Shown here piece after piece: positions 3,991 to 60,345 of a DNA stretch of 64,000 nucleotides (positions are counted from its first letter, which is position 1; each line of letters opens with the position of its first letter). The position numbers were made by a program, and so were the translations under genes. A model generated the notes under the pieces. That model did no database searches and was not told the DNA's origin. It worked only from the letters and a program-made list of their open reading frames with translations. Source of the stretch: Haplodiscus bocki (lineage: Eukaryota); the NCBI GenBank assembly GCA_965655095.1, contig OZ296651.1, positions 27,280,001 to 27,344,000 on the forward strand, given 5' to 3'.

Positions 3991-3994
3991 TCTG

Positions 3995-18216: not shown

Positions 18217-18512
18217 TGTAATAACATCTTTAGTGGGTAATTGAGTTGTTAAGTCAATACTACGAGAGAGACTTGTCTAGACTTGATGTTATTGCTATAA
18301 CTTGATGGAACCTTGCGTACGCTAAAATTTCTAAGATTTCTCAGCGGTTTTTTCGAGAAAACAACTATTGTTGACTTGGATAACACTCCAACTGTAAATT
18401 TATACCTAGATCATGAATACTCATGAATAGTCATAAAGAAGAAATATAAGCAGAGATACATTTTGTCCCATGATACTTCAAAAACTTTTTATCTATAAGT
18501 GTATGTTTTATA
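18217..18512 (-). repeat. 3' LTR of family B element
   Basis: Shares AATACTACGAGA.AGACTTGTCTAGAC...CTTGCGTACGCTAA with 43993-44287; begins TGTA on the plus strand. Confidence 0.8.
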
Positions 18513-20019
18513 ACCGGGGGGTTTTTGGTTTAAAAATTAAAATTCAGTGCGTGTTCATAAAAATGTTAGCCCTTTTCGTTGGGTTTTCAGCCTCAGGTTT
18601 TATCATGGTTTCGTCAAAATGTTTTGTTCCCAGTGAGGTATTTCAGTTGTAGGAAGATTTATTCTTTCTTAATCTCTCGTTTTTACAGGAGTTTTCAGTA
18701 AGTTAAACTAGTTCCATCAGTTGAGTCCTAAAGGTTGAACTAGGTTAAACTAAGGCTTAAGTTAAACTAGTTTTTTCAGGTAAATCCTTTGGGTTCGATC
18801 TTTACTTTTTTGTGCGAAACAAACATAAATTACCAATTATCAATGTGAATGGATTGATTTCAATTTATTAGTCAACTGTTTCTGTTCGAAAGTTTCAGAG
18901 GTGAATATTAAAATGGGGTTGATGGCGTATTTTGACATATTTACATGTCATTGTGAAAAACAATTCAACTTCTGTCAACATCGGTGTGTCAAAATGAGCA
19001 GTTCAGATTTTTCACACATTTGAAAGGAATGATTTCTTCGAAGTCTTTATTCTAAACTTTACTTTGTCTGTTATTGACTATGCTTTCTTTGTTTACTGTG
19101 CTTCCGTTGCCAAGAAAAGTTGAAAAAACCTTGCAGCAGGTGTAAAAAAAAGTAATCAACTTGAGTAGTTGAAACTTGATAATGTGAATTTTTGCGAGAA
19201 TTTCAATTTCATTTTGACCTCTTCAGAAGTTTTGTAATTAAATTCAATCTTCGAAATTGAAACAGCTAGAGAGAGTTGATTCATATAAAGCCCTCCAGAA
19301 TTGTTGTTCATTTTTTGCCCGTTTCGCTCGGATTTCCTAGGGTTTTTTTAGGAAGTTTTCAGAGATAAAGTTTTTGGTTTGGACAACTAATTTTTTTGTA
19401 TATGTTGAGTTGACAATGTTTTAACAATGTATTCAATATTTCATAAAAACTATTTCAGCGAGGACGGAATTTAAGGTTAATAACTAGAGGTGGGACAAAG
19501 CACTTACAATTACAAGCGTAGCACTGTGAGTAAAAATTTGACTACAAAGAAAAGTTTTTGAGAATTTTGAGAATTATTATAATGACTATTTCTTTAACAA
19601 AACAGTTTTAGGCATACAGAGAAAGGTTTATAGTTTAAAAAATGTTTGTGAAAAGACTTAAAGAGAGTTCAAATTAGTTGTATCGACCAATTTTCTGAGG
19701 GCAGATTTCACAGGATTGCGCGTGGAACTTTGCTTGCATCGGAGCATTAATATGAATGACGCATAGTGAATCAGTGCGATCAAGAACAATTGAACGAGAT
19801 TGGTTGAGCAGTGACATTGCAGCCAGATTGCAACCGGATTTATCCAACCGCAGTGGATATTATTCGTCAGTGGCAGAGTTTGAGTTGAAAAATCGTCGCT
19901 TATCCAGAAGAACAGCAACAGTAGTATCCAATCCAATACATATGATGTATCTTTATGGGCGAGAGGAGAACCACAGTATGCAGATATAGCAAGTGCGGAG
20001 AAGAACCAGCATAGTCAGG

Positions 20020-20160
20020 GTAAGACAAATCCAGAAATCCAGAAATCCTAGAATCCAAGGAAATGTCATGAACCAGTGAGCCGGGGAAACAGTAACCTCT
20101 GAGCCAGTCAGCCGGGGCGCTAGTACCAGTGAGCTTTGGAGCCAGTGAGCGAGTACCGGG
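20020..20160 (+). repeat. Short tandem repeats (GAAATCCA-like x4; GAGCCAGT/GAGCCGGG-like units)
   Basis: caaatcca gaaatcca gaaatccta gaatcca followed by several ccagtgagc-type units. Confidence 0.55.
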
Positions 20161-23100
20161 GGAACATATTTTGGAAGTAAATAAAACTTTTCATATAAAA
20201 GAGGTGTGTTTATGAAAAACCTGTGAATAAAGTTTTTAAAAAAGTTTCAGTGTATTTGCAGAATTATAATAATGCAGAGTTATTGTTTTTAAAGTTACAG
20301 TTCATGAAAATTCAGTTTTCTTAAATTCTGTATGGAATAAAGATAGACATGTTTGTTTGTGGAAGCATTTTATTTTTCCGAGGTAGGTTTATGAAAGATT
20401 GGTAAGTAACTTTTTTGTAGATTTTTCTTGTTGTGAATGCCAATCATTCTGCGGAAGAGGGTAATTTGAAATTGAATCATGAATAAATTTAGGCATCATT
20501 ACAGAGGGAACGTTCCGTGGAATAGTTGCAGAGTAAGAGGAGTAATAATCAGAAGATGCATAGTGGACTTGCAACATGTCAATGTTTGCAGACAAATCAT
20601 CATAAACATCGAATTTGAGTGAGGAATAGTGAGTGACAGGTTTATGCGCGAAGTTTTCAAGATTGCCGAACTATCCATGAGGGGCAAAAAGGTATGATTT
20701 GTTTAAAGTTCACTTCTCGAATAATTAGCAAATTCTATTTGAGTGAAGACCTTGATGACTCAATTCTTGATTTTTTCAGGATCTGTGCTTTTTTGTTCAT
20801 GAAATATGTCCAGTGAATAACTCTGGTTGAGAAAATGAAATAGCAGGGCTTTGGCGATAGACTCCGAGTCAATTTTATTACTTAATTGAGGAGAAAAGAG
20901 TTTGCATCAATAAACGTGGAAGCATTGGATGTTGGTTGTGTTGAAAAATGTTTTCTCACAGTCATCTGGGGTTTTTTCTCTCGATCATTTGGGGTTTCCT
21001 TCAGAGCATGGAGAGCCTTGTTGAGGCGGACGCGAAATGCAGCTTTTTGAAGTTTTCTTCTGATTTTGAAGGATTTGGTTGTTTGATTCCGACTTGCCGG
21101 TGATCAAGTATGCATCGGTATGAGGCAGATATCAGTGGTAAATGTCTAAACATAAAACGGGAATTAGAAAATTTTTTTCAGAAAAAATCGCAGAAAATTT
21201 TGGAAGTCTTGAGCAAACGAGATCATAAAGAAGCATAAACGATTATTTTTATTATAATTAAAGGAATTTTTCCAGGAATAAGGAGTTTTTTTCAGAGTTA
21301 AAAGGATCCTAGAAATTACAGAAAATATTTTTATGTAAATATTATAGCAATTTTTCAATAATAAAAACTTCTCGGTGTCATATTTTGGAAGGGAGGTTAA
21401 CAGTCAAAACTTGTTTCATTTATTTGACAGCAGACTGCATTTCGTTAGAGGACTGTTGAATGGTTTTCAGACTCAATTGCAAATTTACACAGGAGAAATA
21501 AGCTGCGTGAGATCCATGAAAAACTTCCTTCAGAGTTTCAATGTGAGACAATTCGAAGTTGTTAGCTCGATTTGGTTCAATTTTTTGTAGAATATGTTTG
21601 CTAAGACGAAACGTTTCCTGAATTTCAGTTGATTGGGCGTTAACATTTTCACTTTCAGAATTATTTCATAATTTTTTGCAGAAGAGGTAACTGTAGCATA
21701 GGAACCAGATTGAGACTTTCTGTTTACAATATGCCAATATTGCTTTTCTCAAAAAACGTGACCGACTTAACAGTCTGAAATAGGAGTTTACTATAACAAT
21801 AGTGTTGCCAACCAAGAGTATTATATTTTTAGAGCTCTATCATTCAGTGGGTGGTCAAAGCCTTATGACAAATGTCGATACGGCTGAGCAACTGTAGTTC
21901 GAATGCAGTCAGGGTCAATTTGTCCACAGTCAGTGGGAATAAAACATTCCTGTGGATTAGTCAAGTGTCTATCAGGAAAACTTTTCAGGATAAGTGAAAA
22001 GTATTGTTTCAAATGATCATAATTTCGCAATGAGCCAATTGTATATGCAGTTTTCGAAGTATGGAACAATTGAATCGAAAATGGAGAAGTGAACTTTAAG
22101 TTTTGAGAGATAGAAAATTTTGGTGATTTTGAAAGGAAGATTACCCCAGAAACTTTTGTGTGTGTCATGATGGACACGTTTTTTTCACAGATTGGAAATT
22201 CGGATTCGAATCATCAGCCTGCAAATTAGGTACAGAAAGCCGTGAAAAACCATTTGCACAGAAAATTTTTTTCTGAAATTTTGCAGTCCTGTACGCATAT
22301 GGAGCTAATTGCTTGGACGCCGAAGAAATGTATTGATCAATATAGCAACTTGGTTTTAATTGGAAATTAAAAGGTGTTGAAAGCTTATTGATCGATGTCA
22401 ATTGACTTTTAAATTGAATTTTTTCAGTTGATAACTGAGATGTTGAGGAGTCATGTCTTTGTAAATCAGGTTTCGATGACGGTTTCAGAGTAAGAGGCAT
22501 TACATTTGAAGGTTAAAATGCATCATCAACTAAAATATTGTACTTCCTTTTTGAGGTTCTTGTAGAATCAGGTGCAGCATTTTTAGTTTTTTGCGGAGTT
22601 TTTGAATCATGAATAACAGTTGAAGGAGGACTACTAGAGGCTTCTTGAATTTCCATCTAATCATTCACGGAGACGTTAGAACCATGTAAAAAGTTCTTAA
22701 CCTCAGTAAAAAGAGTAGCGTTTTGAGAAAAACAAGACAGCGAGCTTTGTGGCGAAACAGTTTCTTTATAATCTTTACGTACAATGATAATCAGAGCCTA
22801 TTGTTTATATTCAGTTGAAGGAGGAGAAACTTCCAAAGCATTTGTAGTGATACTGATAATGGGAGAATTTTGTTTTTTTTACATACGGTTAGAATTGGTG
22901 GTGTCTGCGCGGGCTCTTCAATTTGTCAATGAGAGCAAATCGTACAGATGAAATAATGCAGTGAGGATGAAATTGTGCAGACTTATACTTTTTTCAGAGC
23001 CTAATTTATTAGCGGAGTGTCCTGTTTTTTAGCAGATTTTTTAACAGGGTTTTTCTTAGATTATAACTTTACGAGAGAATATAAATTGGTAGGTTGTATT

Positions 23101-23699
23101 TCAGAATCAAAAGAAGAACTTGATGCAGGCAAATAGAAGAACTTGATTCAACGAGGAACAGAGAAAGAACGAAAGATATCAGAAACTCAGAAAAATGAAC
23201 AATGCAGAGTTCTGTAATTAATGTTTTTCAGGTTGATTTTTGGTCATAGTTTATGACAGTTTGCACTGTAGTTGAATAAATCTATTTTTTTTATTGTTTT
23301 CAGTGTTGTTGATTTTTCATGTTTTCTGATAATTGAGATGAAAGTATATGATACAGAGGTAGGTTGGTTATGCGTGGAAAATAAATTTAATAAATGTCTA
23401 TGGGATGGGATTATAGAGTTGGGTCATAAATGAAGATGTTATATGGTTATTGTCCAGAAAAAAAAATGCAGTTGATACTTTTGTGGCAAGCAGATAAATT
23501 GAAGGAAGAGTAATAAATTTCTCGAGTTCAGTTATTTCAAATTGAATTTTGTCAAAAAAAAGCCATTTTAACAGTTCATTAATTTCAGAAGCTTGAGGCA
23601 TAATTTCCTGGTTCTTAGTTACAGAATTGTTCGGAGTTTGTTAGCTACCATTTTTGAACAATATTCAGGAGGGTCATCAAGAGGTTGAGATGTTTTATA

Positions 23700-25873
23700 T
23701 TGGCGGCTGTCAAGTTCAGCGTCATGTAAGTCAGGGACCATTTATGATGTGGTGTTTTGGTAAATTTACAAAATCTATGAGCTAATGATCTCAGTATGGT
23801 TAAATTTTCATGAAGTCTATACTTCATTGATATAGACCTAAAAATTTTCAGAAGAAACTTGAAAACATTTTGTATAAACAGAAAAGTGGAAAAATATATT
23901 ACACACGGAGTGAGAATATAACATGGAAAGCTAAAAAGTGCAATGAATGCATCAGCAAGCCAGTCAGTAGTAAACAGAGGTGTAATGTCAAAAGGCGATC
24001 ATGTAGACCGACCCTTAGAACATTGTAAGGATTGAACTGGTTTCTATCAGGAGGTAAAAAGAAATCAGTTGGATATTGTTCAGAGGTAGCTAAAATTTCA
24101 TAGGATATGGCTTTCCTAAAAGCTTCAAAGTAGCAACAGAGTGTTTGTTGAATAAAGCACGATTCCAGAATTTTGTTAAATGAGCTCGTAATACTGGTCT
24201 AGGTGTCAGTACAAAGTAATCATCAATATCAAAATCTAATGCTCTGACATTCTGTGGATTTTTATCACAGGATATAGGGGCAGCAAAATTAGAAGTTTCA
24301 TTTGTTTTTGGATCAATGTAGTTTACACTTTCTAGATAGTACATTGGTATACAATCAAAACCTTTATCAGCTTCATACAGAGCTGGAAAAGATTGAAGAC
24401 AGTTATATACCCAAACAGTAGAGCCTTGTATATAGAGAAAATTACTATGGTTTCCAGATTAAGTTTAATTAGCAAGTTGAAGATTTTGAACTGACATTGC
24501 TAAAAAATGTAGCAGTTGCGCTCGTTTTAGTTCACAAATATAATGTATTGTCTTCAGTTCTTGTATACTCATTGAACTAAAAACATGATTGATAGAACAA
24601 TCTAATTTTGTAATATTATGAGCATCGTAGTCGACAGTACTGGAGCTATTTCAACCATTCAGTGGAGGAAAGTAAATTTCAGTTTTTAGAGAGTCAAAGA
24701 CCAACATGTGAAGACGTTGGCTGTTGACTAAATGATGAACCTTCCTGAACAACAATGGGGTTTTCGTTTCCAGTATTCATATTAAAACCTTCACGATAAG
24801 TGACAAACAAGTCAGAAGACTGAGTTGTATGCATGTGTGTTCGTCTTTTACAGAAAGTGTTTTTTGTGGGAAAAGTCCCCACCTGGATATAGTTGGAGTA
24901 ATAGTTCCCAGTGGTGAATTGGTACAAAGACATATAGTTGGCAGTATGCCTTTATTAAATTGTCTAACAATTTTTTCAGTAATAAGAAAGAATTCATCAG
25001 TTTCTGACCAAAATCCAGTATCCAGTTTAGACATCTGTCCAATAAAGTCAAAGATAAATAATATTCAACATAATTCTTCAGGAAATCATACAATAGTAAT
25101 TGGATATTTCTCTCTTGGTTCACAAAAACCATCAGAGTGCAGATAAGGAATGGTATGACCTTCAGGTGTTAGTTTATGTAAATTAATATCAAAGTCTGGA
25201 GAAGTTTCTTCAAATATTATTGACTAGCTATCTTTGTCAATAATATATTCTTGATCACCTTTACATCTTGACTTTAAATCTGCGTTATTGCTAATCCAGC
25301 CATAAATGTTTGGTTGGTAGTTGAAAACACCTGTATGTAAAGTGTTCAATTTGGTCACAGTGAATTGCGTTTCTTTTTTTCGATTTGAACTTGAACACTC
25401 AGTCTATCAAAGTAAATGAAATGGCCATCGTAAGAAAATTGGCTTAATTCAACGCTATCCCTACCATTAACGTTTCAGATAGCTTTTCCAATTCATTAGG
25501 GTCCAGTTCTTTCCGTAGACGCATAGATTTGATATGATATTCCATAGGCTCATGTCCATAATACTTGTCATGTGAACCTCGTCTTTTGAATATTTCCAAA
25601 ACAGTGAAATTCTTTTCGATTTTGCACGAAAAAGAACAGAAGCAAAAGTTCAATTTCACTGGGAGCTTGAGTACATTTCCGTACCCATGTTAAGCTATTT
25701 TGTCTCAGATTGTTTTGCATGCAACAATCATAAAGGACGGCTAGGAGTTGTGGAACCCGAGGATCATCACGTTGAAACAAACTTTCAGAAGTAATTGCAT
25801 CAGCAGTCTGCAGTGATGAGAAATTAAATGTTACAGAGAAGAAAATCAAAGACTTCATGAGGATTACAATCAT
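23700..25873 (-). pseudogene. env: Envelope glycoprotein, chuvirus/Monjiviricetes G-like
   Basis: Signal-like MIVILMKSLIFFSVT; LYDCCMQNNLRQNSLTWVRKC; HSDGFCEP..FPEELC; VDYDAHNITKLD..ICELKRAQLLHFLAM..GSTVWVYNC..FDCIPMYY..YIDPKT..PISC; hydrophobic TM-like AFIALFSFPCYILTPCVIYFSTFLFI near 23880-23950. Confidence 0.7.
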
Positions 25874-25959: not shown

Positions 25960-27080
25960 TTCTCAATCACGATAAATGACAAACGAATGAGAATAGTGAG
26001 TTGTATAAATTTGTGTTGGTTTTTTTACGGAAAGTATTTTTTTGCGGGAAAATTTCCATTCTTCATAAACTTTGAGTAATAGTTCCCAGTGCTGAATCGG
26101 TATAAGGAGATACAGTTGGCAGTATGCCTTCATTAATTTTTTCCCAGTAGTTATAAAGAAATCATTAGTTTCTAACCAATAACGATTATTCTGTTCAGAC
26201 ATTCGTCCGATAAAGTCTGGGATACGAAACAGTCAACATGTTTCTCCAAGAAGCGAGAGAAAAGTAAATGAATGTTTCAGTGTTGGTTTACAAAAACCAT
26301 AGGAGTGCAGATATGGAAGGGTGTGATTTTCAAGTAATAGTTTACGTAATTTGTCAACAATTATTAATGACCAGCTTTCGTGGTCAATATGATATTCTCG
26401 ATCACCTTTACATCTTGTCTTTGAATTTATAGCACTAGTAATCCAGCCATTATTGTTTGGTTGGTAGGTGAATACACCAGTATATACCGTGTTCAGTTTG
26501 GTTGCAGTGAGTTGCGTTTGTTTTTTTTCGTTTTCAAAATGAAAACTCAGTCGATCAAAATAAGTGAAAGAGCCATTATAGGAAAATTGATTTTAATTAG
26601 CGCTATCCTTATCATTAAGGTTTCCGATAATATTTTCACATTCAATAGGGTCCCGTTTTTTTGTATGAGGCATAGAATTAGTATGCCAATCCATATGATC
26701 ATAACTATGTTTTTTTAATGTGCAACTTGAGCACAAAACAGACGAGTCTTTTGAATGGTTGGAGAGCGGCAAAAAACATTAATTCTTTTCGCATTAGCCG
26801 GAAAAAAAACCGAAGCAAAAGTTCTACTATATGCAATATCAGAGGGACCTTGAGTACTTTTCTGCGCCCGACTTAAGGTGAATTCTCTCATATTGTATTG
26901 TTTAGAACGACCTTAATGAGAAGCTAGCAGTTGAGTAATCTGAGGACCTTGCAGTTGATTTTCTTAAAGTTATTGCATCAGCAATCTGCAGTGATGAAAC
27001 AATAAATGTTACACGGAACAAAATAATAAGTTCCAGAAAGTGGTTTTGCATTTCAGACCAGAAATACGGTTGCAAAAGTT
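25960..27080 (-). pseudogene. env: Second, truncated copy of the env N-terminal half
   Basis: Homologous to 24790-25925 at an offset of ~1.15-1.18 kb (SSLQIADAIT; FCAQVAH; NNRYWLETNDFF vs DTGFWSETDEFF). Confidence 0.75.
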
Positions 27081-29399
27081 ACATTTGCCCATTGATGATC
27101 AAATGCAGGTTCGTCAACGCAGGTAAATTGTGGAATGCTTACATCATAGAGACGACGAAACGTTCGGTGTTTAGTTCGAGTTGAGAATATAAACTTACAC
27201 TTATTTTAAAGTTCAGTTCAGTTGATGTGTGGGTTAGTCTAGTCAGTTCTCTATTACGAGTAATAGCAAATTCTGCAGACTTTTGTTTTTTTTCCTTTTA
27301 CATGAAGGATGTGAGATCTCAGATCTTGTCTAGGACGATTAGCTATTTGTTTATCAAGTGTCAGTGGATAAATGTAGAGATCAAGTGTAGGAGGTCTAGA
27401 GTTTTCTTCTGGCGTATGATATGGAAGGTCAGTTGGAGTAATAGCACTCAAAGAAGAAACTGATTTTTGGTCTCGAAGGAGATAAGTAGATCTTGGATAT
27501 GATTGAGCAGTAAATGAAGTTTCAACACCAGAAGAGTGTCTCACTGAAAATGGAACATCAAAAAGATAGATGGAAGATTTTTGAGAAGAAGATGAATGAG
27601 GTTGTGCGTGTTGACGCAATAGTTCAGAGATCGAACTTGATGCTGATCTTGTACTTGAGGAAAATGATGCTTGTTGCGGCCTTAGATGATGCTTGGATCT
27701 TAAATTTTATTGATGAGTTACAGGTTGAGAAGACGAGGTTGATGCAATCCTTGATGAATTTTTAGATTCACAACTCAGAATGTCGTCAACAGAAGTGGTA
27801 GGGTAGAAACTTGATAATAGTTTTGGATATAACCAAGAAAATGTTTCACAACTACTATCAGAAGCACTTTTAGATCAGGTACTTTGCAGAAGTAGATGGT
27901 TCATCAAATTTGTTTTGCAGAGCAGAGGCGGTTTGTTTATCCTAGAATATGGCGTCAATTGGTTTTCGATGTTTGGGAGATCTTCGTTTACTAGCTGTTG
28001 CGGAGCAAATAGCAGATAAACATACCGCTAATTAAGATCGGTTAGTCTAGCGGTAGGGCTTGTGGTCCGGGAGTTGACAGTGGGGGTTCGTTCCCCAGGG
28101 GTGGCTAAATAAACTTTTTAATTGAATAAATTACCGGATAATCACGTTAATAATGCGACAAGATACGTAGAAAAAGCAGTAGAGGTGTTTACAGTTGTTT
28201 ACAAACAAGGTTTGTACATTTTGCAGTTATTTAAACGTTTATACAATGATGTTTTATTCGTGAGAAAGCTTGTTTGACCGTAATACTGTAAAATTCTCTC
28301 AAAAACTATCTTTGTTTTGGTATCAATGATTTACACTAGCGATAGTTTTAGTTGGAGGCGGAGGTGGCAATGGAGAAAGAGCATCCATATCAGAGGAATC
28401 CGGGATATGAATGGGCGTAGGGGTATTAGCTGGGGTGATAGCCGGAGCTAACGGTATCGGTGATAGCTGAGGTCTTTGAGCAGCTACTGTAGGAGTAATT
28501 GAGTTTTCAGAGGAGTAATTTGATTTTTCAGGATTGCTTGAAGCCTGTACAGTAGATGCAGTATCTATGAACTTTGAGTTTTTTCCCGAGACTGGTGGAG
28601 CAGAGGGTAATTTATTATAATCAGATGAATCTGGCGAAGGATCCAGGATTACGTCAACATCAGCAAAGAAATTTTTAGTTACAGAGTTTTTTGCTCCTAC
28701 GCAATATACAGTTTCTTCAAAAGTATTTGAATCAGAGGTATCAATTGTGGAATACTTGTAGAGTCAATTGTGGAATCAAATTGTGTTCAGTTTTTTATAC
28801 CACAGTGGTGAGGTTTCGAATTTATTAGGCTCAGTTTTTAGAGGAATTTTTCCAGAGTGTTGAAATTCTCTCCAGAAAAATAGCAGAGACTTAACAGCAA
28901 AATGCAAAAGTGATATTCTATGATGGACAAGAAAAAAATTACTATGGATGTTTCCATAAAGTTTCGTTGAGCAACTCGATTCAACTTGATTCAATCTCGA
29001 TGAGCAACTCTATGCATCTCAACTTTCTGAAAAATATTTTTTTTCCGGAGAGGAAAGTGATGAAATGAAAAGAGAATAAATTTTTCTCGATAGTGTTTGC
29101 AGACATATTTGGTTCGAGTGTTTCTGTTGGAGGTTTGTGATTGGTTGAAAAACGGAAACGAATTTGGTTGGTTAGCAAGTGACGTAGCAATGTCCTTAAC
29201 AGTGTCAGTGTCAGGTAACTCAAATAACTCAGTAAACTTGTTGAATGATTGAAATTTTGACGATCGCGGTTTATAATGTAGACTTTCGCAGTCAGATTTT
29301 GGTCGTGAGATATGATAAAAAACTTCATCTTGTTTTGCAGATTTGTATATTACTTTATCAAACATAATTCATTGAACATCATCAATAATACACAATGGG

Positions 29400-32300
29400 T
29401 TATCATGAAAAACATCATCATCAAAATTAGAGTTGTCTTATGAAGTATAAAGACCACCTTCAAATATGTCTGATGTATCTGAATCATGCATTCTTTGAGA
29501 AATTTGTTCATTTTATGGTTAAAGATGAGGAAAGAGAAAAGGTTCTTTAGGATAATATGGAATCAAGTGTTTTTGATGTGTGTGGAAAGTCTTTTAATCT
29601 CGTGTCAGAAGTTCATACGTGACTTCCGTAGGTTTGCTAACATTTTCGAAAGGATCATTACGAAGTGGTTCTAATTTATCCAAAAATGTAAAAGGTGTAA
29701 AATATCGATGTAAAAACAGATAAATTCAGCCGTATTGGTTTGTCCAAATTGTGTGATTTTTGCATTGTAAATGCCACATAGTTTTTTTTCAATACGTTTT
29801 GATATAGATTTGAGTAAAATTGAAGCATTGCTGCTTCAATAGCGAGAAACCAATTAGAAATTGGTATCAATAAGATGGTTTTAGACAATGGATAAAAATC
29901 CATTAATTGATAATGAAACTGAGGCGGAACTTCTGAGCAAAAATGTGCAGTACAATCACGAAATGAAATTTGAGATCAGTGGAATATGCGGTTGCGTATG
30001 AAAAACTGTTTCATATGGCTAAAAATGCAGATGTCTTAAAATTTGAGTAAAATGAGCAGAAGCAAAGAAATGTACTTGGTTGGATCAGTTTTTAGAGGTA
30101 TCAAGTAGAAACAATCTTAGAAAGTTCCCAAGATTTTTCTTCTTGACTTCAACAAGTCCGTTTGTCCAGGGAGCAAGTGAAGTTTATGGCAAATGAATAA
30201 TATTAAACATAGTACAGCATTTTGCCATTTCAGAATTAAAATAATCAGTTCCTCTGTCTGTAATCAGATTTTGGGGTGGACCAAAATTTGAAATCCAGTA
30301 ATGAAATTTTGCAACTACAGCACAAAGAGTATTGTTTTGTATTTAGTACAGTTACAATGTAGTTGCTAAAATGATAAACAATTACATAAATATGATGAAT
30401 TCCGTCAGAAGCAGGGTTTATGGGACCTTTAGTATCCATAGAATAACTATGGTGAAAAAAGTTGGACAGTTTTCTGAATGGTGAGATTGCAGCTTCGTTT
30501 TGTTTCTTATTTCTGTACTTGTGCATATGGCATCAATACAATCATGATTGAAAATTGATAGTCGTTTTTGCAGAAAAAGAAGTTATTAGTACTGATGAAA
30601 ATTATTTTGTGCAATATGCACACCAGCATAAAACTTTTCATGAGCTTTTTGGAATGTAGAATAAAACAAATTTAATGGTAAGCAAAAGCGAGAGCTTTGA
30701 GGAGAAATGTTATCATCAGCGTACTGTGAAATTTTATCATTTTCTCCAGAGGTTTTGTGTCAATAGTTATTAGTTTGGTATCTTCATCAGAATACAGATT
30801 CGAAAAAGTAATTGGTAATATTCCATCAAAAGCGGACTAGCAGTTATAAACAGGTGATTTTGCAACAAGAAGTGAACATTCAGTAATCCTTTTTTTTACA
30901 CTTTTCACAACGGGATCATTCTTTGACATTTCAGTGTTGTTTCAAAATCCAATGGAATTTCAGGAGGTAACAAGAATTCATTAAAGTTCAGAGGCGTATT
31001 CGAAAAATCATGGATCAAAGAAATAATTATTCAATGATTGTTTTATTACAGATGGGTATGTTTCTTGGATAGTTTTGCAGTTGTAATTTTCCATTTTCAG
31101 AGTCATTTAACTTTTCAGATGTAGATGGATTAACAATCAGCGATAAATCAGGGGAAGAAAGAATCATCATTCCGTTGTATACCTATTTCAATAGGATCAT
31201 CGTAATCAGTGATGTCGGTATCATTCAAAATTGCAGATTGTTTCAAAAATGTTCTGGTATTTCTCTTGATTTGATTTTTATCCTGACTTCAAAATCGTTT
31301 GACAGCTTCAGTGGAAAAGGAAATCAGTGGTTTAATTTTGATTTTCCCTTCTTTGTCATTGATACGATTGGAGGATTGATCGTTTACGAAAGCAGCTCAA
31401 ATAGGATGACGATGGTTTTTCTGTGAAGGAAGTACAGTTTCATGTTTGACCAGATAGTGTACATGGTTAATTTGCTCATCATGTGCCAGTGTGCGAGTGT
31501 TGCAAAATGAATCTGCGGAGGTAATTGTTCGTGTTTTAGTTGATTCGCTTGCAGTTGTTTTTGAATGTAAGAGCTACTTGACATATCAGCTGCAGAATGA
31601 TTTTTTCCATTCATGAAAGTCAAACGAAGTTTTTGAAATTTAGTTAATTGCATAAGTGCAGTGTAGAATTCTATAGAAAGGTTTCGTTTTTAGTGAAACA
31701 GCTAAAGATTGGTTTACGATCATTCAAACCTTGAAAAAATGATTAGAGCCAATAAGAAATCATTCCCATTCAGTTAGTGAAAATACAATTCCGTTTAATT
31801 CACGATATGCAGTAGAGAGTTTTGGTTCATTATCAATAGAAACGCTAGAATTATAAGAAATAAAATCCATTTTGCCATTATCATTCATTTGGTATAGGAC
31901 ACAGCCTATACCAATTGAAGAGGAAACTAAAGTGATAAAAAATGAATGGTTTGTATTGGGTAGTGTCAGTGAAACATCATTCGTAAAAAATTTTAGAACA
32001 AAATTTCGTCAACCAATGATCCTCATCAATTCAATTTCTGTAATTGGAGAAGGAATTTTATGAAGAGCAGCAATTTTGGATTGACTTTGTTTAATTCTAA
32101 TAAAACCAAATTTAAGACCAAGATTTTTACAGCACGAAACATGAAGGAAGATTTTTCAGTAGCTAATTTCTGATTTTTTAGCAATATTATGATTTATTTT
32201 GATAATTTGCAACATATGTGGTTTAGACTTTGAATTGAGCAAAATGACATCAATAAAAACCAGTGCATGTCCTTGACGAATCAAGTCCTTCAAAAACAGA

Positions 32301-33860
32301 GACATTTGTTTGTGTGAAAAAGTTTGGAAGACTTTGAAGGCCCTGAAATATTCTAATGAAAGCAATGATTTTCTCACCAGAGGAAAATCCAGTTAGTTTG
32401 ATATTTTCATCATCTAAGGTAGCACATGCACATGCAAACGTAAGATTAATTGTAGAGTTATGTTTCTTATTTGCTCTAGCAGTCTGTGTTGTTAAAGGAT
32501 CCAGTGGCCAAGATTCGGATGAATGATCAGTTTTTGATTTGAAATGTCGGGCACCCAACACATTTTTTTCAGTATCATTCTTTTCGATCAAAATCAAAGC
32601 ATTCAAAAAATTTGTTCCATAATTTGGTTTTTCATGAGGCGTGGACCCAAATTGTTTTTTCATTCCAGTTTTTCGTAAAGCATCCAATAAAATTTTAAAT
32701 TTATCGCTATAAGGAATAGCAACTTTAGTAGGACTCTGTGTTTGCAGTTAAGCATTAAATTAAAATCTAATGCGATATGGAGTAGAAATTTCCCCGACCT
32801 CCTTACGATGTGTAGCATGACAGTGTTTATTTTCAACATGAACTTTGCAGAGTTGAAGGAAATCAGAATCATTGAGATCGAGTTTCGAAAATGAAAGTTC
32901 TTCGGGAACTGTAATTTTTGCTCAGAACATGGTGAAAGTGGATATACTCATGGAGCTAATTTTCGAGACGGTTGTACTTTACGGAATAGTTTTATGGGTT
33001 AGATCTTCATACAGATCATTATGATCAACTTCGAAAATTTGTTTTTTGTTGTTTAATCTCCTGAAAATGAACATTAATTGGTTCAGTTGTTTCAGGATAG
33101 TAGGTATTTACTACCGAATGAATGAGTGTTTTTAAAAGATTAGTTTAATGATGAGATGGTTTGACGGTGGTAATAGGGATTTCAATATATCCTTTTAATC
33201 CAGTTGGAAATGTAGCCGTGTGCTTAGTATTATTTTTGATTATTACTAGGTACGAATGTTCAGATTTCAATAAAATATGCCTGAACGAAAAGTATCGTTC
33301 CAGTTTTGATAGGGAATGAGTTCGAAACACTTGGGCAAATATTGGTTCATGATTTTCAGTTTTAGTCAAAAAAGTTTGTGAAGTTTTCAGTGCAAAGTGT
33401 AATGTTTGTACAGTGTTGGGTTTGAGTGATCATGGCTTTTTGAATTTGCCTGATAAGGAAACGAAAAGAAAGGTATATTCTTTTCAGTTAGTGTAGTAAA
33501 AGAAACAAACGTGCGGTCACCATTGAAGGAAAGTTTTAAGTTCATGGTAAACTTTTGGGTATTGATAAGTTTCATGTTTTTCTCAAAGAATGGCGCTTCG
33601 ACGATTTTTTATTCAATATCAGCTACTGCGGAAGGGATCATGAAAAATCTTGATTTTGTTTCAATTGATAGGAGACAAAATACGGAGATAAATTGTTTAA
33701 TTGGAACTTCAGAAAAGATTGAAAAAGTCAGCATTTTTGATAGATTATGTTGATCTTGATTTCAAACTTTGAACTTTCGGGTGATCATCATATACGTTGG
33801 TATATTAAGTACCAAATTAGATGAACCGCTATCCAAGGTGAAGCGATTTCTATTCTTGAA
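29400..33860 (-). pseudogene. pol: pol: aspartic protease, reverse transcriptase, RNase H, integrase
   Basis: LDSGSS (~33830); LGARHFKS, FQGLQSLPNFF, LVFIDVILL (RT); SSSIGIGCVLYQ, YRELNGIV (RNase H); MDTKGPINPASDG..IYVIV, PWTNGLVE, DPF..TYEL..YYPKEP (integrase). Confidence 0.92.
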
Positions 33861-34399
33861 GTTGACTTTGAATCAGTTTCGTTCTGAGAATGAATATACG
33901 GAAAATAACATTAGCTTGTTGGAGTTATAGCATTTGTCATTTCAGTGGTATACGTCCCAACTTCAAATCTGTCTGTTAACCTTGAAAAGTTTTCAGTGTA
34001 GTGGTGATGATTTTCAGCAAAGTTTGGTTGTACATTAACTACAAGTCTTTTAGATGAAGACGCAAATCGAGAAGGTGGTCTTGAGAGAGGTCAATATGAT
34101 GAATTAAATATTCTAAAGTACTGCCGATTTCCAGAGTTGGATCTGGAAACAGAACAATTGCGAATGTTTTTGAAAGAAGAAATGTAAAGGGACCTAGAAT
34201 TTCTTCGTTGGTTATTAAATTCAGTAAATCTTGAATGTGATCGAATTCGATTGGAATTGAATGCTGTATCACGAATACGATATCAAAAACGAGAGTTTTT
34301 GCGTCGATCACGTGAGATTGAAAGTGATCTAAAACCAGAAAATCGATATGGAGAATATCGATTTCTTCAGTTCGAACGATTTCTCGAATCTTAAATATT

Positions 34400-35300
34400 G
34401 CGAGAACACTAGTTTACAGGGTATGATGAAGGTTGTCCATTTGGATGATTTTGTTTCTGATATGCTTAAAGAATTGATTGATGGGTTTCACAGGTGATTT
34501 CCATCGAGAATAAGAATTCCGTCTTCTTTCTTCATTTTCTCGTTGCTTGCGAAAACAATTTGAACGAGAGTGATTGGATTTGTGACAATATTTACAGTTT
34601 CTCCCAAAAAGGGGTTTTATTCTTTTTATTCGGTACAGTTGTTTTTTTTTAACATGATCACGGGATTCGGATCACAACTTTCAGCAGATAGATTTTGAGA
34701 ATCCAATTTTGTTGTTACAGTATTAGTTTCCAGTGGTGGATCAAGAGTACGAACTTCTTCATTTGTAAAATATTCAGAATCAACAAGCTTAACCAAGATA
34801 TGAAATGGAATGGAAGATTCAATAACAGTAGATGTGTGACTGATTTGCCGTTTTTGAGCTAAGTCTGTCAGTTTTTTTGCTAATCCTCTACTGAAAAGTT
34901 TGTTACACTTGAAGGTAATAGTTGAAGCAGATTCATTACACCAGCTTTTTCAACTAATGGTTGACTTTTTAGAAATAATGACGTATGTTTTCAGTTTCCT
35001 TTTTTGTTAAGTCCTGAGCTTCAACTTGTGCATAATATACAGTTTTCTGTGAAAAAAAATGTTTTTGAATGCAGATACAAAAGCAGACCAGTCTGTTTTG
35101 TAATTTCCATGGATTTGCGAAAACCAGCTTAACACGCTTCCAGATATAGAAAGCTGTAAATGTGCCACTTTATGTTTGTGCCATTGATTATAAGATACAA
35201 GATTGAGAGGTTGTTGTCCCGTAATAAAAATCATATTGGCATCTATCTGATGTATTTTGTTCGTCAGGAGTATTTCGATGGTCAGGTCAATCAAAGGTTT
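34400..35300 (-). pseudogene. gag: gag (module 3)
   Basis: HQIDANMIF..QPLN..LSISGSVLSWF..DWSAFVSAFK capsid-like segment and CKYCHKSNHSRSNC zinc knuckle near 34557-34598. Confidence 0.8.
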
Positions 35301-38300
35301 TCACTGATTTGTTCTGGGATTTGCAGAAGAGCTTGTTGTGTATTATCAGGTGGGTTTGTGTTTGGGTCCACAGACGTCTCACTTTAGAGAGACTCAGTTT
35401 TATTCTCAATGGGGTTGTTAATATCATCCTTTTTATTTTCAGATAATTTATTTGAGTGTGAATTGGTGTTTTGTTTGTTTGACATGATATCATAAACTTT
35501 GCAAAGTAACTAGAAACATTTGAATCCAGAAGATTTCAATGAACAAGAATAAACTGTTGAAAAACTTTTTGCAGAAGATTGCATAAATGAAGTTTTGGAT
35601 TGTTGTTTATGTTTGTACACTTCAAGCAGCCAAGAATGAAAACGAAAAATCTGATGAGAGTCTAAAACATTAACTGTTTTAGAAGTTGCGTTCAAACAAA
35701 AGGTTGTTGGCAATAACAAAAAGTTATGTGAAACTGCGTTCAACCAAAAGAATGCTAGCAGAATTCAAATGAAGATTTCCATGTGAGAGTTTTTTTGTTT
35801 CAGGTAAAGATAATGACAGGGGATTAGGGATTTCAACTTATCCTATTGTTCCAGTGGGAAATGTAGCCGTGTGCTTAGTATTCTTTTTAAATATTACTAA
35901 GTACGAATGTTCAGATTTCAATAAAATGTCCCTGAAAGAAAAGTATCGTTCCAGTTTTGATAGGAAATGAGTTCTTGACATTTGAGCAGAAATTGGTTCA
36001 AGATTTTCAGTTTCAGGCAAAAAAAGTTTCTGAACCTTTCAGTCCAAAGTGTATTGTTGGTAGAGCGTTGGGCTTGAGTGATCATGGCTTTCTGAGATTG
36101 TTTGGTAAAGAAACGAAAAGAAAGGGAAATTCTTTCCAATTAGTGTGGTAAAAGAAACAGTTTTGGGGTGATCATTAAAGGAAAGTTCTAAGTTCAAGGT
36201 AAAACCTTGGATACTGATATTTTGGATGTATTTCTCAATGAATTTCGTTTTGAGGATTTTTTTTACCAGCTACTGCGAAAGGGATCATGAAAAATCTTGC
36301 TTTTGTTTCTATTGATGAGAAACAAGTTACAGAGATATATTGTTTAATTGGAACTTCAGATTGGATTGCAATAGTCAGCATTTTTGATATATTATGTTGA
36401 TCATGATTACAAACATTGAACATTTGGGGGATCATCATTTGGGTTGGTATATTCAGTACCGAAATCGATGCATCGCTATCCAATGCAAAAGCGATTTCCA
36501 GTCTTGAAGGTAAATGTGAATTAATTTTGTTCTGAGAATGAACATACAGATTGAAAATTCAGCTTGTTTGAGTTATAGTTTGTGTCATTTCAGCGGTATC
36601 CATGCTAACTTCAACTTTGTCTGCCGACTTTGAGAATCTCTCAGTGTAATGGGCATGATTTTCAGAAGAGTTGGGGGTATAATTTTTACAAATCTTCTGG
36701 ATGCCCACGCAAATCGAGAATGTGGTCTTGACCGAGGTCAAAATGAAGAATTATAATTTCTGAAGTACTCTCGGTTTCCAGAGTTGGATCAAGAAAACGA
36801 ACGATAGCGATTATTTTTGGAAAAAAGAAATGTAAAGAGATCTAGAGTTTCTTCGTTGGTTATAAAATTCAGTGTAACTTGAAGGTGATGGAATTCGTTT
36901 GGAATTGAATGCTCTATAACGATAACAATATCGAAAACGAGAAATTTTGCGTCGATCGCATGAGATTGAAAGTGATCTAAAGCAGGAGGATCGATATAGA
37001 GAATATCGATTTCTTGAATTCGAACGATTTCTCGAATCAAAACCATTGCGCGAAAGCTAGTGTATAGGATATGATGAAGGTTGTCCATTTTGATGAATTT
37101 GATTCAGGTTTGCTTTAAAGAATTGATTAATGGATTTCACAGGTGATTTCCATCGAGGATAATAATTCCGTTTTCTTTCTTCATTTTGGCGTTGTTTGCG
37201 AAAACATTTTGAAACAGAGTCATTGGATATCTGACAATATTTACAGATTCTCCGAAACTGAGGTTTACTCTTTTTTTTCCGGAAAAGTTGTTCGCGTAAA
37301 CGTGACTTCAGGATTTGGATCAGAGGTTTGAGCGGATAATTTCCGAGATTCCAGTTAGGACGTTACCTAGTTTATTTCCCGTGGTGGATCAAGAGTACGA
37401 CTTTTTTCAATCGTAATAACTTCAGAATCAACAAGCTCAACCAAGGTATGAAAAGAAACGGAAGGTTCCATAACAGTAATTTTATGATTTAGTTGCGGTT
37501 TCTGAGCAAAGTCCTCAGTTTTTTTGGTAAACCTCTAGTGAAAAAATCCTTACACTTGAGGTTAATAGTTGCAGCAGATTCATTAAACTCGCCTTTTTAA
37601 ATAATTGTTGACTTTTTAGAGCATAATAGGGTACACTTTCAGTTTACTTTTTTGTTAAGTCCTGAGCTTCAACTTGTGCATAATATACAGTTTTCTGTGA
37701 AAAAAAATGTTTTTAAATGCAGATACAAAAGCAGACCAGTCTGTTTTGTAATATCCTTGGAGTTGCGAAAACCAGCTTAACACGCTTCCAGATATTGAAA
37801 GCTGTAAATGTGACACTTTATGTTTGTGCCATTGATTATAAGATACAAGATTGAGAGGTTGTTGTCCCGTAATAAAAATCATATTGGCATCTATCTGATG
37901 TATTTTGTTCGTCAGGAGTATTTCGATGGTCAAGTCAATCGAAGGTTTTCACTGATTTGTTCTGGGATTTGCAGAGGAGCTTGTTGTGTATTATCAGTTG
38001 GGTTTGTGTTTGGGTCCACAGACGTCTCACTTTAGAGAGACTCAGTTTTATTCTCAGTGGGGTTGTTAATATCATCATTTTTATTTTCAGATAATTTATT
38101 TGAGTGTGAATTGGTGTTTTGTTTGTTTGACATGATATCATAAACTTTGCAAAGTAACTAGAAACATTTGAATCCAGAAGATTTCAATAAACAACAATAA
38201 ACTGTTGAAAAACTTTTTGCAGAAAATTGAATAAATGAAGTTTTGGATTGTTGTTTATGTTTGTACAGTTCAAGCAGCCAAGAATGAAAACGAAAAATCT

Positions 38301-40300
38301 GATGAGAGTCTAAAACATTAACTGTTTAAGAGGTTGCGTTCAAACAAAAGGTTGTTGGCAATAACAAAAAGTTATGTGAAACTGCGTTCAACCAAGAGAA
38401 TGCTAGCAGAATTCAAATGAAGATTTCCATGTGGGAGTTTTTATGATTCAGGTAAAGATAATGACAGGGGATTAGGGATTTCAACTTATCTTATTGTTCC
38501 AGTGGGAAATGTAGCCGTGTGCTTAGTATTCTTTTTAAATAATACTAAGTACGAAAGTTCAGATTTCAATAAAATGTCCCTAAAAGAAAAGTATCGTTCC
38601 AGTTTTGATAGGAAATGAGTTCTTGACATTTGAGCAGAAATTGGTTCATGATTTTCAGTTTCAGGCAAAAAAAGTTTCTGAACCTTTCAGTGCAAAGTGT
38701 ATTGTTGGTAGAGCGTTGGGCTTGAGTGATCATGGCTTTCTGAGATTGTTTGATAAAGAAACGAAAAGAAAGGGAAATTCTTTCCAATTAGTGTGGTAAA
38801 AGAAACAGTTTTGGGGTGATCATTAAAGGAAAGTTCTAAGTTCAAGGTAAAACCTTGGATACTGATATTTTGGATGTATTTCTCAATGAATTTCGTTTTG
38901 AGGATTTTTTTTACCAGCTACTGCGAAAGGGATCATGAAAAATCTTGCTTTTGTTTCTATTGATGAGAAACAAGTTACAGAGATATATTGTTTAATTGGA
39001 ACTTCAGATTGGATTGCAATAGTCAGCATTTTTGATATATTATGTTGATCATGATTACAAACATTGAACATTTGGGGGATCATCATTTGGGTTGGTATAT
39101 TCAGTACCGAAATCGATGCATCGCTATCCAATGCAAAAGCGATTTCCAGTCTTGAAGGTAAATGTGAATTAATTTTGTTCTGAGAATGAACATACAGATT
39201 GAAAATTCAGCTTGTTTGAGTTATAGTTTGTGTCATTTCAGCGGTATCCATGCTAACTTCAACTTTGTCTGCCGACTTTGAGAAGCTCTCAGTGTAATGG
39301 GCATGATTTTCAGAAGAGTTGGGGGTATAATTTTTACAAATCTTCTGGATGCCCACGCAAATCGAGAATGTGGTCTTGACCGAGGTCAAAATGAAGAATA
39401 ATATTTTCTGAAGTACTCTCGGTTGCCAGAGTTGGATCAAGAAAACGAACGATAGCGATTATTTTTGGAAAAAAGAAATGTAAAGAGATCTAGAGTTTCT
39501 TCGTTGGTTATAAAATTCAGTGTAACTTGAAGGTGATGGAATTCGTTTGGAATTGAATGCTCTATAACGATAACAATATCGAAAACGAGAAATTTTGCGT
39601 CGATCGCATGAGATTGAAAGTGATCTAAAGCAAGAGGATCGATATAGAGAATATCGATTTCTTGAATTCGAACGATTTCTCGAATCAAAACCATTGCGCG
39701 AAAGCTAGTGTATAGGATATGATGAAGGTTGTCCATTTTGATGAATTTGATTCAGGTTTGCTTTAAAGAATTGATTAATGGATTTCACAGGTGATTTCCA
39801 TCGAGGATAATAATTCCGTTTTCTTTCTTCATTTTGGCGTTGTTTGCGAAAACATTTTGAAACAGAGTCATTGGATTTCTGACAATATTTACAGATTCTC
39901 CGAAACTGAGGTTTACTCTTTTTTTTCGGAAAAGTTGTTCGCGTAAACGTGACTTCAGGATTTGGATCAGAGGTTTGAGCGGATAATTTCCGAGATTCCA
40001 GTTAGGACGTTACTTAGTTTATTTCCCGTGGTGGATCAAGAGTACGACTTTTTTCAATCGTAATAACTTCAGAATCAACAAGCTCAACCAAGGTATGAAA
40101 AGAAACGGAAGGTTCCATAACAGTAAATTTATGATTTAGTTGCCGTTTCTGAGCAAAGTCCTCAGTTTTTTTGGTAAACCTCTAGTGAAAAAATCCTTAC
40201 ACTTGAGGTTAATAGTTGCAGCAGATTCATTACCCTCGCCTTTTTAAATAATTGTTGACTTTTTAGAGCATAATAGGGTACATTTTCAGTGTCTTTTTTC
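34990..40300 (-). repeat. Two near-identical 2648-bp tandem units carrying extra leader-gag-protease modules
   Basis: ORF pairs offset by exactly 2648 bp (35007/37655, 35838/38486, 36235/38883, 36789/39437) with identical or near-identical translations. Confidence 0.93.
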
Positions 40301-42560
40301 GTTAAAGCCTGAGCTTCAACTTGTGCATAAAAAACAGTTTTCTGTCAAGTAAATTGTTTTTAAATGCAGGTACAAAAGCAGACCAGTCTTTTTTGTAAAA
40401 TTTCATGAAGTGGCAAAAAGCAGTTTAACGCGATTCAGGATAAAGAAAATTGTATAGGTGCCATTTTTTGTTTGTGCCATTGAATATAAGCTACAGGATT
40501 GAGAGGTTGTTCTCCCGTAGTAAAGATCATGTGTGTATCAATCTGATGTAATGATTCGTCAGGAGTGTTTTGTTGGTCAAGTCCATCAAAAGTTTTCATA
40601 GATTTGTTCGTCGCAACAAAAGATATGGTACGTTCTGTGTATTTACCGAAGAAGGGTTTGTTGGAGCCACAGCCGAAAGAGTTGAACGGAAAAACGCAAA
40701 AGGACCTATATTAGGTGCAGTGCGTGGTTGATATAAGGTTTCACATTGGTTTGCAGTGGTGTTTAAATTAGCATTCGTTTTGAATGGATTATTGTTGGTG
40801 CTGCTCAATGGGTGAGTATTAGCATTATTCGATTATTTTGGATTTGGTTATTATAATCAGTCAATGGATTAAATGTTGGTTCTTTCCTCTGGGTTCTATT
40901 AAATAAAAAAAATGACGGATTTGCAGTATTTTGAATATGAAATTGATGAGAAATTACACCAGAAGAGTTATCTTGAGGTTTAAACTTATTAGAAGTGTTT
41001 GGTTCAATATGAATATCAGAATTGTTTCGAATAGTTATTGTGGGAACTTGCAGTTGTTTTGTACTACCTGCTATCAGAACAGAACTGGTCGGAATGGAAA
41101 TGCCATTGACTTCAGTAGGAGATATACTTTCATTGGTTTCAGTATTGTTTATATTTGGATTTATTTTAACAGAATTTGATTGTGGTTGATGTTGGAAACC
41201 AGAACTAATAATTTGGTTTTATTCGTGAGCAGTTATTGTCTCAGTGAACGTTGAATAAATTGAACCTGTGTCATCAACATAGTGATCAACAGTTCTAGTT
41301 GCAGTGATTGCTCGTGTCTTCAGATTAGGTCAAATTTCTGATTGCAAATCAATTTCGGCATTGGTTTTGAGTAGATTATATTGTTTGGGTTGAACATGTT
41401 CAGTTTCAATCAAGAAAGGAAGTATTTTTTCTTCAGGTAGATGATTTGAGAAATTTTAAAACTGTTTCGATCTAAGGTATTCCAGATAAGTTAAAATTTA
41501 AATCGAAGAAAATTTCTCAGAAACAGAGAATAAAGTTTAATTTGTGGTTTTGTTACAATTTCTAAAACAATTAATTGAGGGAAAACGTAAAATGGAGAGC
41601 ACTTATTCGAGCAAAATCTTTCAAAAACCAGTTGTGTTGATTAGCAAATCTTTGAATTTTATCAATTTCAGAAATTTCAATAAAATATTGTATTCTGCAA
41701 AGTTTATCAATTGCAGAGGAAACAGCTACAGGTTGTTCTAAACATTCATGTAGAATCTTGCAGTTCATTCAGAAAATGTACGATTAAATCCTGAATTGCT
41801 AAATAAAAAGCTTTAGGTTTTATTGGATTTGAAAAAATTCCAGTGTTTTTTTTAACTGGGTTGAAAACAACAGTGGAAGGTACATCAGCAAAACTTGACT
41901 CAGAAGTCGTAAAATGGCTATAATAAAGATAAGAGTCACGATGTTCTCTAATCAGAGGGATTGAATAAATATCATTAAGTATTTTTCAAATGGCAGAGAG
42001 TTTGTTGAATTATATATAAAAGGTTTTCAGTGAACTTAAAAGCATAAGTAAAAAAAGCTCGTTTTTGGTTTTTGAATTTCTGCAATGATATGAAAAACCA
42101 ATGGTGTAGGAATGTAATATTCATATCATGCAACTTGTTGTGGTGGTAACTTTTCTTGATGTTGAAAGTACCATTTTAGTTTTTTTTGATAGAATTTTGT
42201 CATGTTTAATTCCAGTATCAAAAATGATTCAATTTTTGTATCAATTGAATGCGTTACAGTTCTTGTTTTCCTACAAATTGATTTGCAGCTTCACTTCTTC
42301 GTTGATGCTGTAATCGTAAACGTTCATTTTCAGTTTGAGTTTGTTCTGATGAAAAAACATCAGAGGATTGTTCTTGCATTTCTAGATATGCGTTTTGTTT
42401 TTGTCCAGCAAATTTCTTAGAATAGGAAGATTCTGGGATTTGCAGAAGGTTTTGTTGTGTATTATCAGTTGGGTGTTTTTGGTTCCACAGATGTTTAACC
42501 TTGAAGGGAGTCAGTGTTTTTCTCAGCGTCGTTGTTATTGTCATCGTTTCCATTCTCAGA
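39780..42560 (-). pseudogene. gag: gag (module 1, long form with extended N-terminal region)
   Basis: Capsid-like segment at 40300-40590 is homologous to the other modules; upstream Asn/Thr/Gln-rich decayed ORFs at 40610-42433 are absent from the other copies. Confidence 0.6.
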
Positions 42561-43992: not shown

Positions 43993-44287
43993 TGTACAAA
44001 TTTTTAGGTAGGTATTTGGGTTGTTGAGGTAATACTACGAGAAAGACTTGTCTAGACCTAAAGGTATTGCTACAACTTGATGTTATCTTGCGTACGCTAA
44101 TTTTTCTAAATTTTCTTAGCAGTTCTGTTCAGAAAACAAATTTTTTCTACTTCGAAAAAACTTCAACTTTAAATATATGTCTGGATCGTAAATTTTCATG
44201 AAAAGTTAAAAATAAGAATTGTAAATAGAGTTGAATGTTGTCCAATGACAATTCAAGAACTTCTTCTCTAATTGTGTGAGTATAACA
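43993..44287 (-). repeat. 5' LTR of family B element
   Basis: TG...CA termini, 295 bp, homologous to the five other LTR copies, adjacent PBS. Confidence 0.85.
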
Positions 44288-52330: not shown

Positions 52331-52849
52331 CAACCTTCATCATATCCTATACACTAGCTTTCGCGCAATGGTTTTGATTCGAGAAATCGTTCGAATTCAA
52401 GAAATCGATATTCTCTATATCGATCCTCTTGCTTTAGATCACTTTCAATCTCATGCGATCGACGCAAATTTTCTCGTTTTCGATATTGTTATCGTTATAG
52501 AGCATTCAATTCCAAACGAATTCCATCACCTTCAAGTTACACTGAATTTTATAACAAACGAAGAAACTCTAGATCTCTTTACATTTCTTTTTTCCAAAAA
52601 TAATCGCTATCGTTCGTTTTCTTGATCCAACTCTGGAAACCGAGAGTACTTCAGAAATTATAATTCTTCATTTTGACCTCGGTCAAGACCACATTCTCGA
52701 TTTGCGTGGGCATCCAGAAGATTTGTAAAAATTATACACCCAACTCTTCTGAAAATTATGCCCATTACACTGAGAGCTTCTCAAAGTCGGCAGACAAAGT
52801 TGAAGTTAGCATGGATACCACTGAAATGACACAAGCTATAACTCCAACA

Positions 52850-60194: not shown

Positions 60195-60345
60195 TTTGGT
60201 AAGATATTAAGATAGGGCAAAGTGCGGTAATGTCTTTAGATGAGGTTTAGATCGGCAATGTACTAAGATAGGGAAAAGTCCGGTAATGTATTAAGATAGG
60301 GTGTACTTCGGCAATGTATTAAGTTGGGGTCTATCTCAGTAATTC
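60195..60345 (+). repeat. ~28-bp minisatellite (TTCGGCAATGTATTAAGATAGGG-like)
   Basis: About five degenerate units; related units at 55733-55855, 57710-57832 and 59700-59822. Confidence 0.65.

Follow-up and report, generated by a model that had tools for sequence, protein, structure and literature searches.

The closest described system is the class of env-bearing Ty3/gypsy elements surveyed by Chary & Hayashi (eLife 2026, preprint DOI 10.1101/2023.10.26.564294; PMC13524379), who reported 1512 such elements. In that survey, which applied a pol-env gap filter of 500-1000 nt and included elements with intact gag, pol and env ORFs, gB-type env is described in many phyla, and the presence of a chuvirus-like glycoprotein next to a gypsy pol is stated outright. 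The published class is further characterised by cysteine-bridge types (C1-C3) in domains I-II of env, by an RNase H plus 'mini' domain in the bridge of pol, and by its place in an 'ancient' clade of the POL tree. Two further systems are relevant: Anakin, a mosquito BEL/Pao element that carries a chuvirus glycoprotein (Dezordi et al. 2020, PMC7642597); and Burro/GYPSM1, giant planarian gypsy elements in which a mononegavirus-related env occurs together with a MATH_TRAF_C domain (Arkhipova & Yushenova 2019, PMC6431247).

The feature studied here lies in a window of 64,000 nt (the whole stretch of DNA that was analysed) and is best explained as the env of a long-dead copy of an env-bearing Ty3/gypsy element, of the kind published as HSV/gB-type errantiviruses; we give this reading a probability of roughly 0.88 (Table 1). 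The original prediction had taken the capture of this env type to be described in BEL/Pao alone, and the gypsy lineage to be of a possibly undescribed type; both statements are overtaken by the published survey (PMC13524379). As in the HSV/gB-type errantiviruses, a gypsy gag-pol is followed downstream by a separate env (signal peptide, gB-like class III ectodomain, TM), the element is multicopy, and its PBS starts like the tRNA-Gly type given for three elements of the survey (first 7 nt; PMC13524379). The differences are that the window subfamily is wholly decayed, that the families seen here are 17-19 kb long with a pol-env spacer of 2-2.9 kb in three of the four, beyond the gap filter of the survey, and that they carry accessory ORFs, TRAF being unmentioned in the available text of Chary & Hayashi (PMC13524379).

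Table 1 Features of the env-bearing element, of its neighbouring copy and of a sister family (positions are those of the window unless a locus is given).
Feature	Position	Strand	Remarks
Decayed env, Monjiviricetes/chuvirus-type class III fusion glycoprotein	23700..25873	-	Motifs, profile, several frame pieces
Env parts: signal peptide, Cys-rich ectodomain, TM	23700..25873	-	Fold via homology to intact sister protein
Tandem partial duplicate, 5' half of env	25967..27076	-	70% identical to 24791-25922
Pol-env spacer common to the family	27100..29500	-	Runs free of shared stops
Decayed integrase	29540..30900	-	rve E 0.004; DTKGP at 30436
Decayed RT and RNase H, Ty3/gypsy type	31500..32960	-	PF17919 47.4 bits, PF17917 43.9 bits
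Gag-protease region, ~3 tandem units of 2648 nt	33174..40609	-	CCHC 34596, LDSG 33836
5' LTR, TG...CA, about 295 nt, then PBS-like stretch	43993..44287	-	
3' LTR	18217..18512	-	76.8% identity to 5' LTR over 271 nt
Post-env region inside the LTRs, family-shared	19840..23660	-	Shared-stop-free sense runs
Second, opposite-orientation copy of the same family	49673..64000	+	87% identity over gag-RT
TRAF-like ORF of a sister family	L090:7890-8915	-	G000:C1 about 80679900-80680900; also L096-L107

The env features first proposed were found at the stated location, in minus-strand frames: an ATG at 25873 is followed by a hydrophobic leader (best 19-mer Kyte-Doolittle value 1.79), and a TM-like hydrophobic stretch starts at 23947 (value 1.89) and lies near 23950-23780. 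Six-frame reading shows these features together with YDCC at 25732; the motifs DY..H..KLD..ICE and VWVYNC..FDCIP..IDP..C both fall between 24650 and 24200. The proposed C..DGFC motif was recovered in part: HSDGFC is present at 25133, and the leading C is not there. The gene is no longer an ORF; it is split into at least six frame segments, with stops, and about 90 nt near 24180 that are present in other copies are missing. Pfam PF24664 (Monjiviricetes_fusion) was matched in one frame at E 8.7e-4, under the curated cut-off. Four collinear pieces matched a profile of 69 intact relatives with 1.7 (the N-terminal half, a weak score), 21, 103 and 17 bits, and the match is beyond chance, because domain scores in ten shuffles stayed at or below -1.0 bits, one shuffle being without any hit; elsewhere in the window the profile scored -1.0 bits or less. 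The frame breaks are real and not assembly errors, because contigs from four public sequencing runs (one study, at most two samples, possibly the source of the assembly itself) reproduce the listed env pieces with 0-1 differences and no gaps; joints in these contigs with sides of fewer than 30 letters were treated as repeat noise. The window env copy no longer encodes a protein and is inert.

The assignment to a chuvirus/Monjiviricetes-like class III env was borne out by PF24664, by the 69-relative profile and by the fold of an intact sister env. Intact relatives are present in the same genome, where at least 121 PF24664 matches were obtained (68 scored of 4113 candidates), many of them in open frames of about 720 aa, and intact sister env is ~30% identical to the window env core. 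The env profile was matched by all 21 subfamily copies scanned, which jointly cover positions 5-675 of 718. The fold was modelled on the intact sister env L013 (pLDDT 73, pTM 0.47), and the gB-like class III fold found there extends to the window gene by homology to L013. The best viral-library matches of the model were chuvirus/qin/xinmo-type G proteins (E 4e-31 to 2e-28, at only 14-18% identity), and the best PDB matches were herpes gB (E 1e-12), with VIA Z 9.1 and rmsd 3.4 over 155 aligned residues for gB domain IV, so that the proposed comparison with chuvirus G and herpes gB, made on the intact sister env, matched both. Whole-chain TM-scores of the model were low (0.20-0.41), which may reflect a differing domain orientation in the monomer model; a sequence search of the PDB with intact env gave no match at E<=1, the fold search alone being informative. 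In the ESM Atlas, an env relative falls in PF24664 clusters in which viruses make up most of the labelled members. The env thus shares sequence family and predicted fold with the G proteins of Monjiviricetes/Jingchuvirales, and differs from them in being retrotransposon-encoded and in its low identity to the best viral structures.

On the minus strand the element reads LTR-PBS-gag-PR-RT-RH-IN-spacer-env-3' region-LTR, with a leader region preceding gag and about 5 kb between env and the 3' LTR; in the neighbouring copy, the corresponding ORF matched Retrotrans_gag above cut-off. The gag-PR-RT-RNase H-integrase order and TG...CA LTRs with a PBS and a short TSD agree with Metaviridae, the TSD being read in other copies: there is none that matches at the window copy, whose 3' LTR has also lost its initial TG. 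LTRs were present in 6 of 9 other copies checked, the 4-bp TSD was exact in four of the five read and agreed at 3/4 bases in the fifth, and the five other copies with both LTRs are about 16.7-19.3 kb long. The proposed position of env downstream of a co-oriented pol holds in that the upstream pol is real, and fails in that env does not adjoin it: about 2.4 kb of spacer and the partial env duplicate (27076-25967) lie between the integrase end (~29540) and env. FIDV (32257) and DTKGP belong to the window copy, and the full set of pol motifs cited had been pooled from several elements: the intact YIDD (54506, 56479, 58456) is that of the neighbouring plus-strand copy, GPF in integrase context (10444) is that of a third element, and no D[YF]R.L was found in the RT of the window copy.

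Counting stops common to most copies, long stop-free runs numbered 73 in sense and 26 in antisense, and those in sense between them cover the spacer and the greater part of the post-env region. This pattern suggests a decayed pol extension or an extra ORF in the spacer, and the post-env region probably holds decayed accessory ORFs of no named family. No Pfam family was found on the two open spacer pieces scanned or in the post-env region; tblastn of 5 plus 17 accessory ORFs of relatives gave no hit in the decayed post-env, spacer and leader regions; and a TRAF profile reached at best 4.4 bits in the window-family loci, with no TRAF remnant.

The gypsy nature of the backbone was confirmed by the RNase H families, by pol comparison and by the RT tree. 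PF17919 and PF17917 of the window pol were both above cut-off, and the best PDB match of its RT was the Ty3 RT 4OL8 (E 1.1e-5). In an RT tree (quick search, single-frame fragments, midpoint rooted, L033 and L123 left out for their short matches) BEL was split off with support 100, and the 12 family rows, which fell on the gypsy side of that split, formed a single clade with support 98; the grouping with Belpaoviridae that had been named as a possible refutation was thus looked for, and the RT fell on the gypsy side instead. Neither the families of a BEL-type pol (Peptidase_A17, DUF1759, DUF5641) nor a place in the BEL RT clade was found. That the backbone is BEL/Pao, as in Anakin, is practically out of the question and is refuted by these data: such elements are plentiful here, with 151 Peptidase_A17 matches in the genome, and it is they that are described as carrying the glycoprotein in mosquitoes (PMC7642597), whereas gypsy pol of the same genome was matched by 19 of 21 copies and BEL pol (10 tested) by none, and this env was absent from all 14 BEL loci of the same genome. 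Anakin shares with the elements reported here a chuvirus-type glycoprotein on an LTR retrotransposon, and differs in its BEL/Pao backbone.

The linkage of env to pol, whose absence from other copies would have counted against the original prediction, is family-wide. Among the 20 copies compared (of 40 scored DNA relatives of the window element), co-oriented pol pieces lie upstream of env in 18, and the other two have no pol within the 10 kb fetched. These two copies, together with the 2.4 kb spacer between integrase and env, are what speaks for an endogenous fragment of a chuvirus-type RNA virus that became by chance a neighbour or inmate of a gypsy element. We regard such an origin as very improbable: the position and orientation of env between the LTRs are the same in 18/20 copies, the intact sister env is under purifying selection among copies (dN/dS 0.09; 28 pairs, 8 copies), and no viral N or L family was found in the flanking frames scanned; the family-wide placement of env behind pol refutes it. 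The same association was seen outside this genome, in metagenome contigs with this env: gypsy pol lies upstream in 7 of 17 and BEL pol in none, the other ten contigs being short (<4.6 kb) and without a pol hit.

Pairwise identity among the subfamily copies is 72.2-78.8% (190 pairs), and env is broken in 20/20, with a longest open stretch of 92-230 aa. Because the copies are only 72-79% alike and every env is broken, the subfamily is evidently dead, the product of an old burst of copies and then neutral decay. The term infectious, used in the original prediction, accordingly does not apply to the window subfamily, every examined copy being broken, and neither the window copy nor any of the 20 has the intact gag, pol and env ORFs that the survey required for inclusion. 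As for the second copy in the window, its env lies just past the window end (locus L035).

Several rearrangements were observed in and around these copies. Decayed copies often carry internal tandem amplifications, with periods of 2648, 1978, about 1170 and about 960 nt (window 33174-40609, 54400-59800 and 24791-27076; L046 and L048; G000:C8 about 70.90-70.93 Mb). Between the two neighbouring inverted copies, gag units reach 94-97% identity, compared with ~75% for family members in general, a pattern suggestive of recombination or conversion at a later time. Three pieces of the family LTR are found in a 1205-nt tandem array between the head-to-head copies (window 46057-48766).

Env and RT trees recovered the same three groups (the window subfamily; the intact families with L108; L116/L121), the env tree being, like the RT tree, a quick one of single-frame fragments, midpoint rooted, with 7 database proteins left out, and both trees being without named reference elements or viral sequences. 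Because the two trees are congruent at family level, an old association is favoured over a fresh capture: judged from these sequences, the env-pol association is older than the window subfamily and is common to the intact sisters and to elements of other hosts. The independent env acquisition first proposed is therefore not supported, contigs from other sources being included in the congruence. That proposal, put as a scenario in which env was captured early from a Monjiviricetes/chuvirus-like RNA virus independently of the published gB-type errantiviruses, env and pol having co-diverged afterwards, seems to us doubtful, with arguments on both sides. The structural match to RNA-virus G is far stronger than that to herpes gB (E 1e-31 versus 1e-12, values from different libraries), the ESM Atlas clusters are mostly viral in their labelled members, and Chary & Hayashi allow several gypsy lineages as sources and made no global phylogeny of gB-type env (PMC13524379). 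On the other hand, resemblance to chuvirus G is no distinguishing mark of this env, because part of the published gB-type set had been retrieved by means of chuvirus-like baits (PMC13524379); env relatives with 24-42% identity occur next to gypsy pol in contigs of other origin; and in a viral contig collection none of 30 pattern hits was confirmed as an env relative.

For the errantivirus-type element that we favour, the living form would, by what is known of related families, have copied itself by reverse transcription and integration with 4-bp target duplications, and its env would have served as a separate membrane glycoprotein mediating the fusion of particles with other cells. By analogy with Drosophila gypsy, the element would have been infectious, the fusion probably serving passage from soma to germ line; for gB-type elements the mechanism is stated as unknown by Chary & Hayashi (PMC13524379).

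The search for intact copies, proposed at the outset, succeeded in sister families of the same genome (env intact, pol ORFs long) and found none in the window subfamily. The LTR pair of the L011 family is 100% identical over 1845 nt and that of another young copy 99.4%. In a sister gypsy family with env, a TRAF-like ORF, intact at 434-469 aa in most copies, lies between env and the 3' LTR; its C-terminal TRAF/MATH domain matched PF21355 with 59 bits (cut-off 27.4) and PDB TRAF4 with E 1e-12, its dN/dS is 0.18, and at least 135 matches occur in the genome (from 118 scored candidates). Env lies upstream in 12/12 loci fetched with this ORF, and a pol hit in 9/12. In the L011 family, too, a TRAF-type domain comes right after env (L084:4520-4996, minus strand, 93 bits), so that a TRAF-like gene follows env in two intact sister families and in none of the window subfamily. 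Other accessory ORFs were seen as well. The pol-env spacer contains a conserved ORF of about 235 aa that runs antisense (L096:2828-3538, minus strand, dN/dS 0.12), and a 207-aa ORF follows env (L096:7411-8031, plus strand, dN/dS 0.22), neither with a Pfam family. In the L013 family, env is followed by a different ORF of 361-362 aa (L092:7322-8407, minus strand), to which no Pfam family and nothing in the ESM Atlas corresponds; two metagenome contigs (L108, L110) have relatives of it in the same place. A further locus with ORFs of the antisense-spacer/207-aa kind is L015:4601-5269. Weak Macro-domain matches in the gag/pol junction region of two intact families (L020:7741-9540 and L083:3-1577; E 6e-4 and 0.015) were both below cut-off. 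In the metagenome contigs L116 and L121-L124, related gypsy elements with env have pol and env separated by an additional sense ORF (about 280-310 aa); where the contig reaches, another ORF follows env, and the ORFs scanned gave no Pfam family.

An oversized gypsy with env and TRAF is also what Burro represents, the TRAF-like ORF being found here in sister families. In Burro, gag, env and pol follow each other in frame in one polyprotein of some 4,900 aa, and the env is called gypsy-Env-like (PMC6431247); here, by contrast, env is of PF24664 type and forms an ORF of its own downstream of pol, TRAF comes after env, the window subfamily is without a TRAF remnant, and the host, by its mitochondrial code, is not a rhabditophoran flatworm. 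TRAF cargo is not new, because it has a precedent in the planarian Burro elements, and the combination of gypsy with a chuvirus-like env is not a new kind either.

The host is probably an acoel (Xenacoelomorpha). Mitochondrial COX1 reads by code 5 (L063 = G000:C6626; L125), which excludes rhabditophoran flatworms, echinoderms, cnidarians, sponges, tunicates and vertebrates. A single exact match to the Hox-type helix-3 motif was found in 1.5 Gb, a count from which introns or variant codons could hide matches; it sits in what we take to be a posterior-class homeodomain, and most other bilaterians would give several such matches. Code 5 and the single Hox-type match together fit an acoel; three Hox genes are described in acoels (PMC5054442). 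A microRNA scan gave 0 for bantam and also 0 for the control mir-124 (58-59 candidates scored), and the arthropod cuticle family gave 0 candidates in a scan with no positive control.

The window copy itself, a dead instance of a published class, changes little; what is of value is the family. Should the host be an acoel, the family would supply a phylum absent from a survey that argues for a Precambrian env-gypsy association, Xenacoelomorpha not being in the genome list of Chary & Hayashi as available (PMC13524379), and the long pol-env spacer marks a kind of element that the survey filters would skip. The host group, as a carrier of this kind of element, and the accessory genes of the sister families look unreported and may be so; no env-bearing gypsy in acoels was found in a literature search of titles and abstract openings, with most subscription papers and Repbase outside it. 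Because selection acts on their fusogen as well as on their TRAF-like gene, the intact sister families offer a setting in which to ask whether gypsy elements of invertebrates acquired accessory genes directed at host immunity, in the manner of retroviruses. Young LTR pairs, selection on the env, TRAF-like and antisense ORFs, and a phylum outside the survey allow a broader, though rather improbable, reading: an acoel harbouring still-spreading, complex gypsy retroviruses of 17-19 kb that captured a Monjiviricetes-type fusogen for themselves and have, behind env, accessory genes including a RING-less TRAF-like dampener of innate-immune signalling, the window element being a fossil branch.

Two other elements were observed in the window. 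At about 8700-11050 lies the end of the third gypsy element, whose integrase is 62% identical to that of the L015 family and whose plus-strand ORF at 8714-9307 resembles, by eye, the antisense spacer ORF. On the minus strand, fragments with an integrase (rve, E 0.007) extend over about 1650-5600 and are reminiscent of a Polinton/Maverick element.
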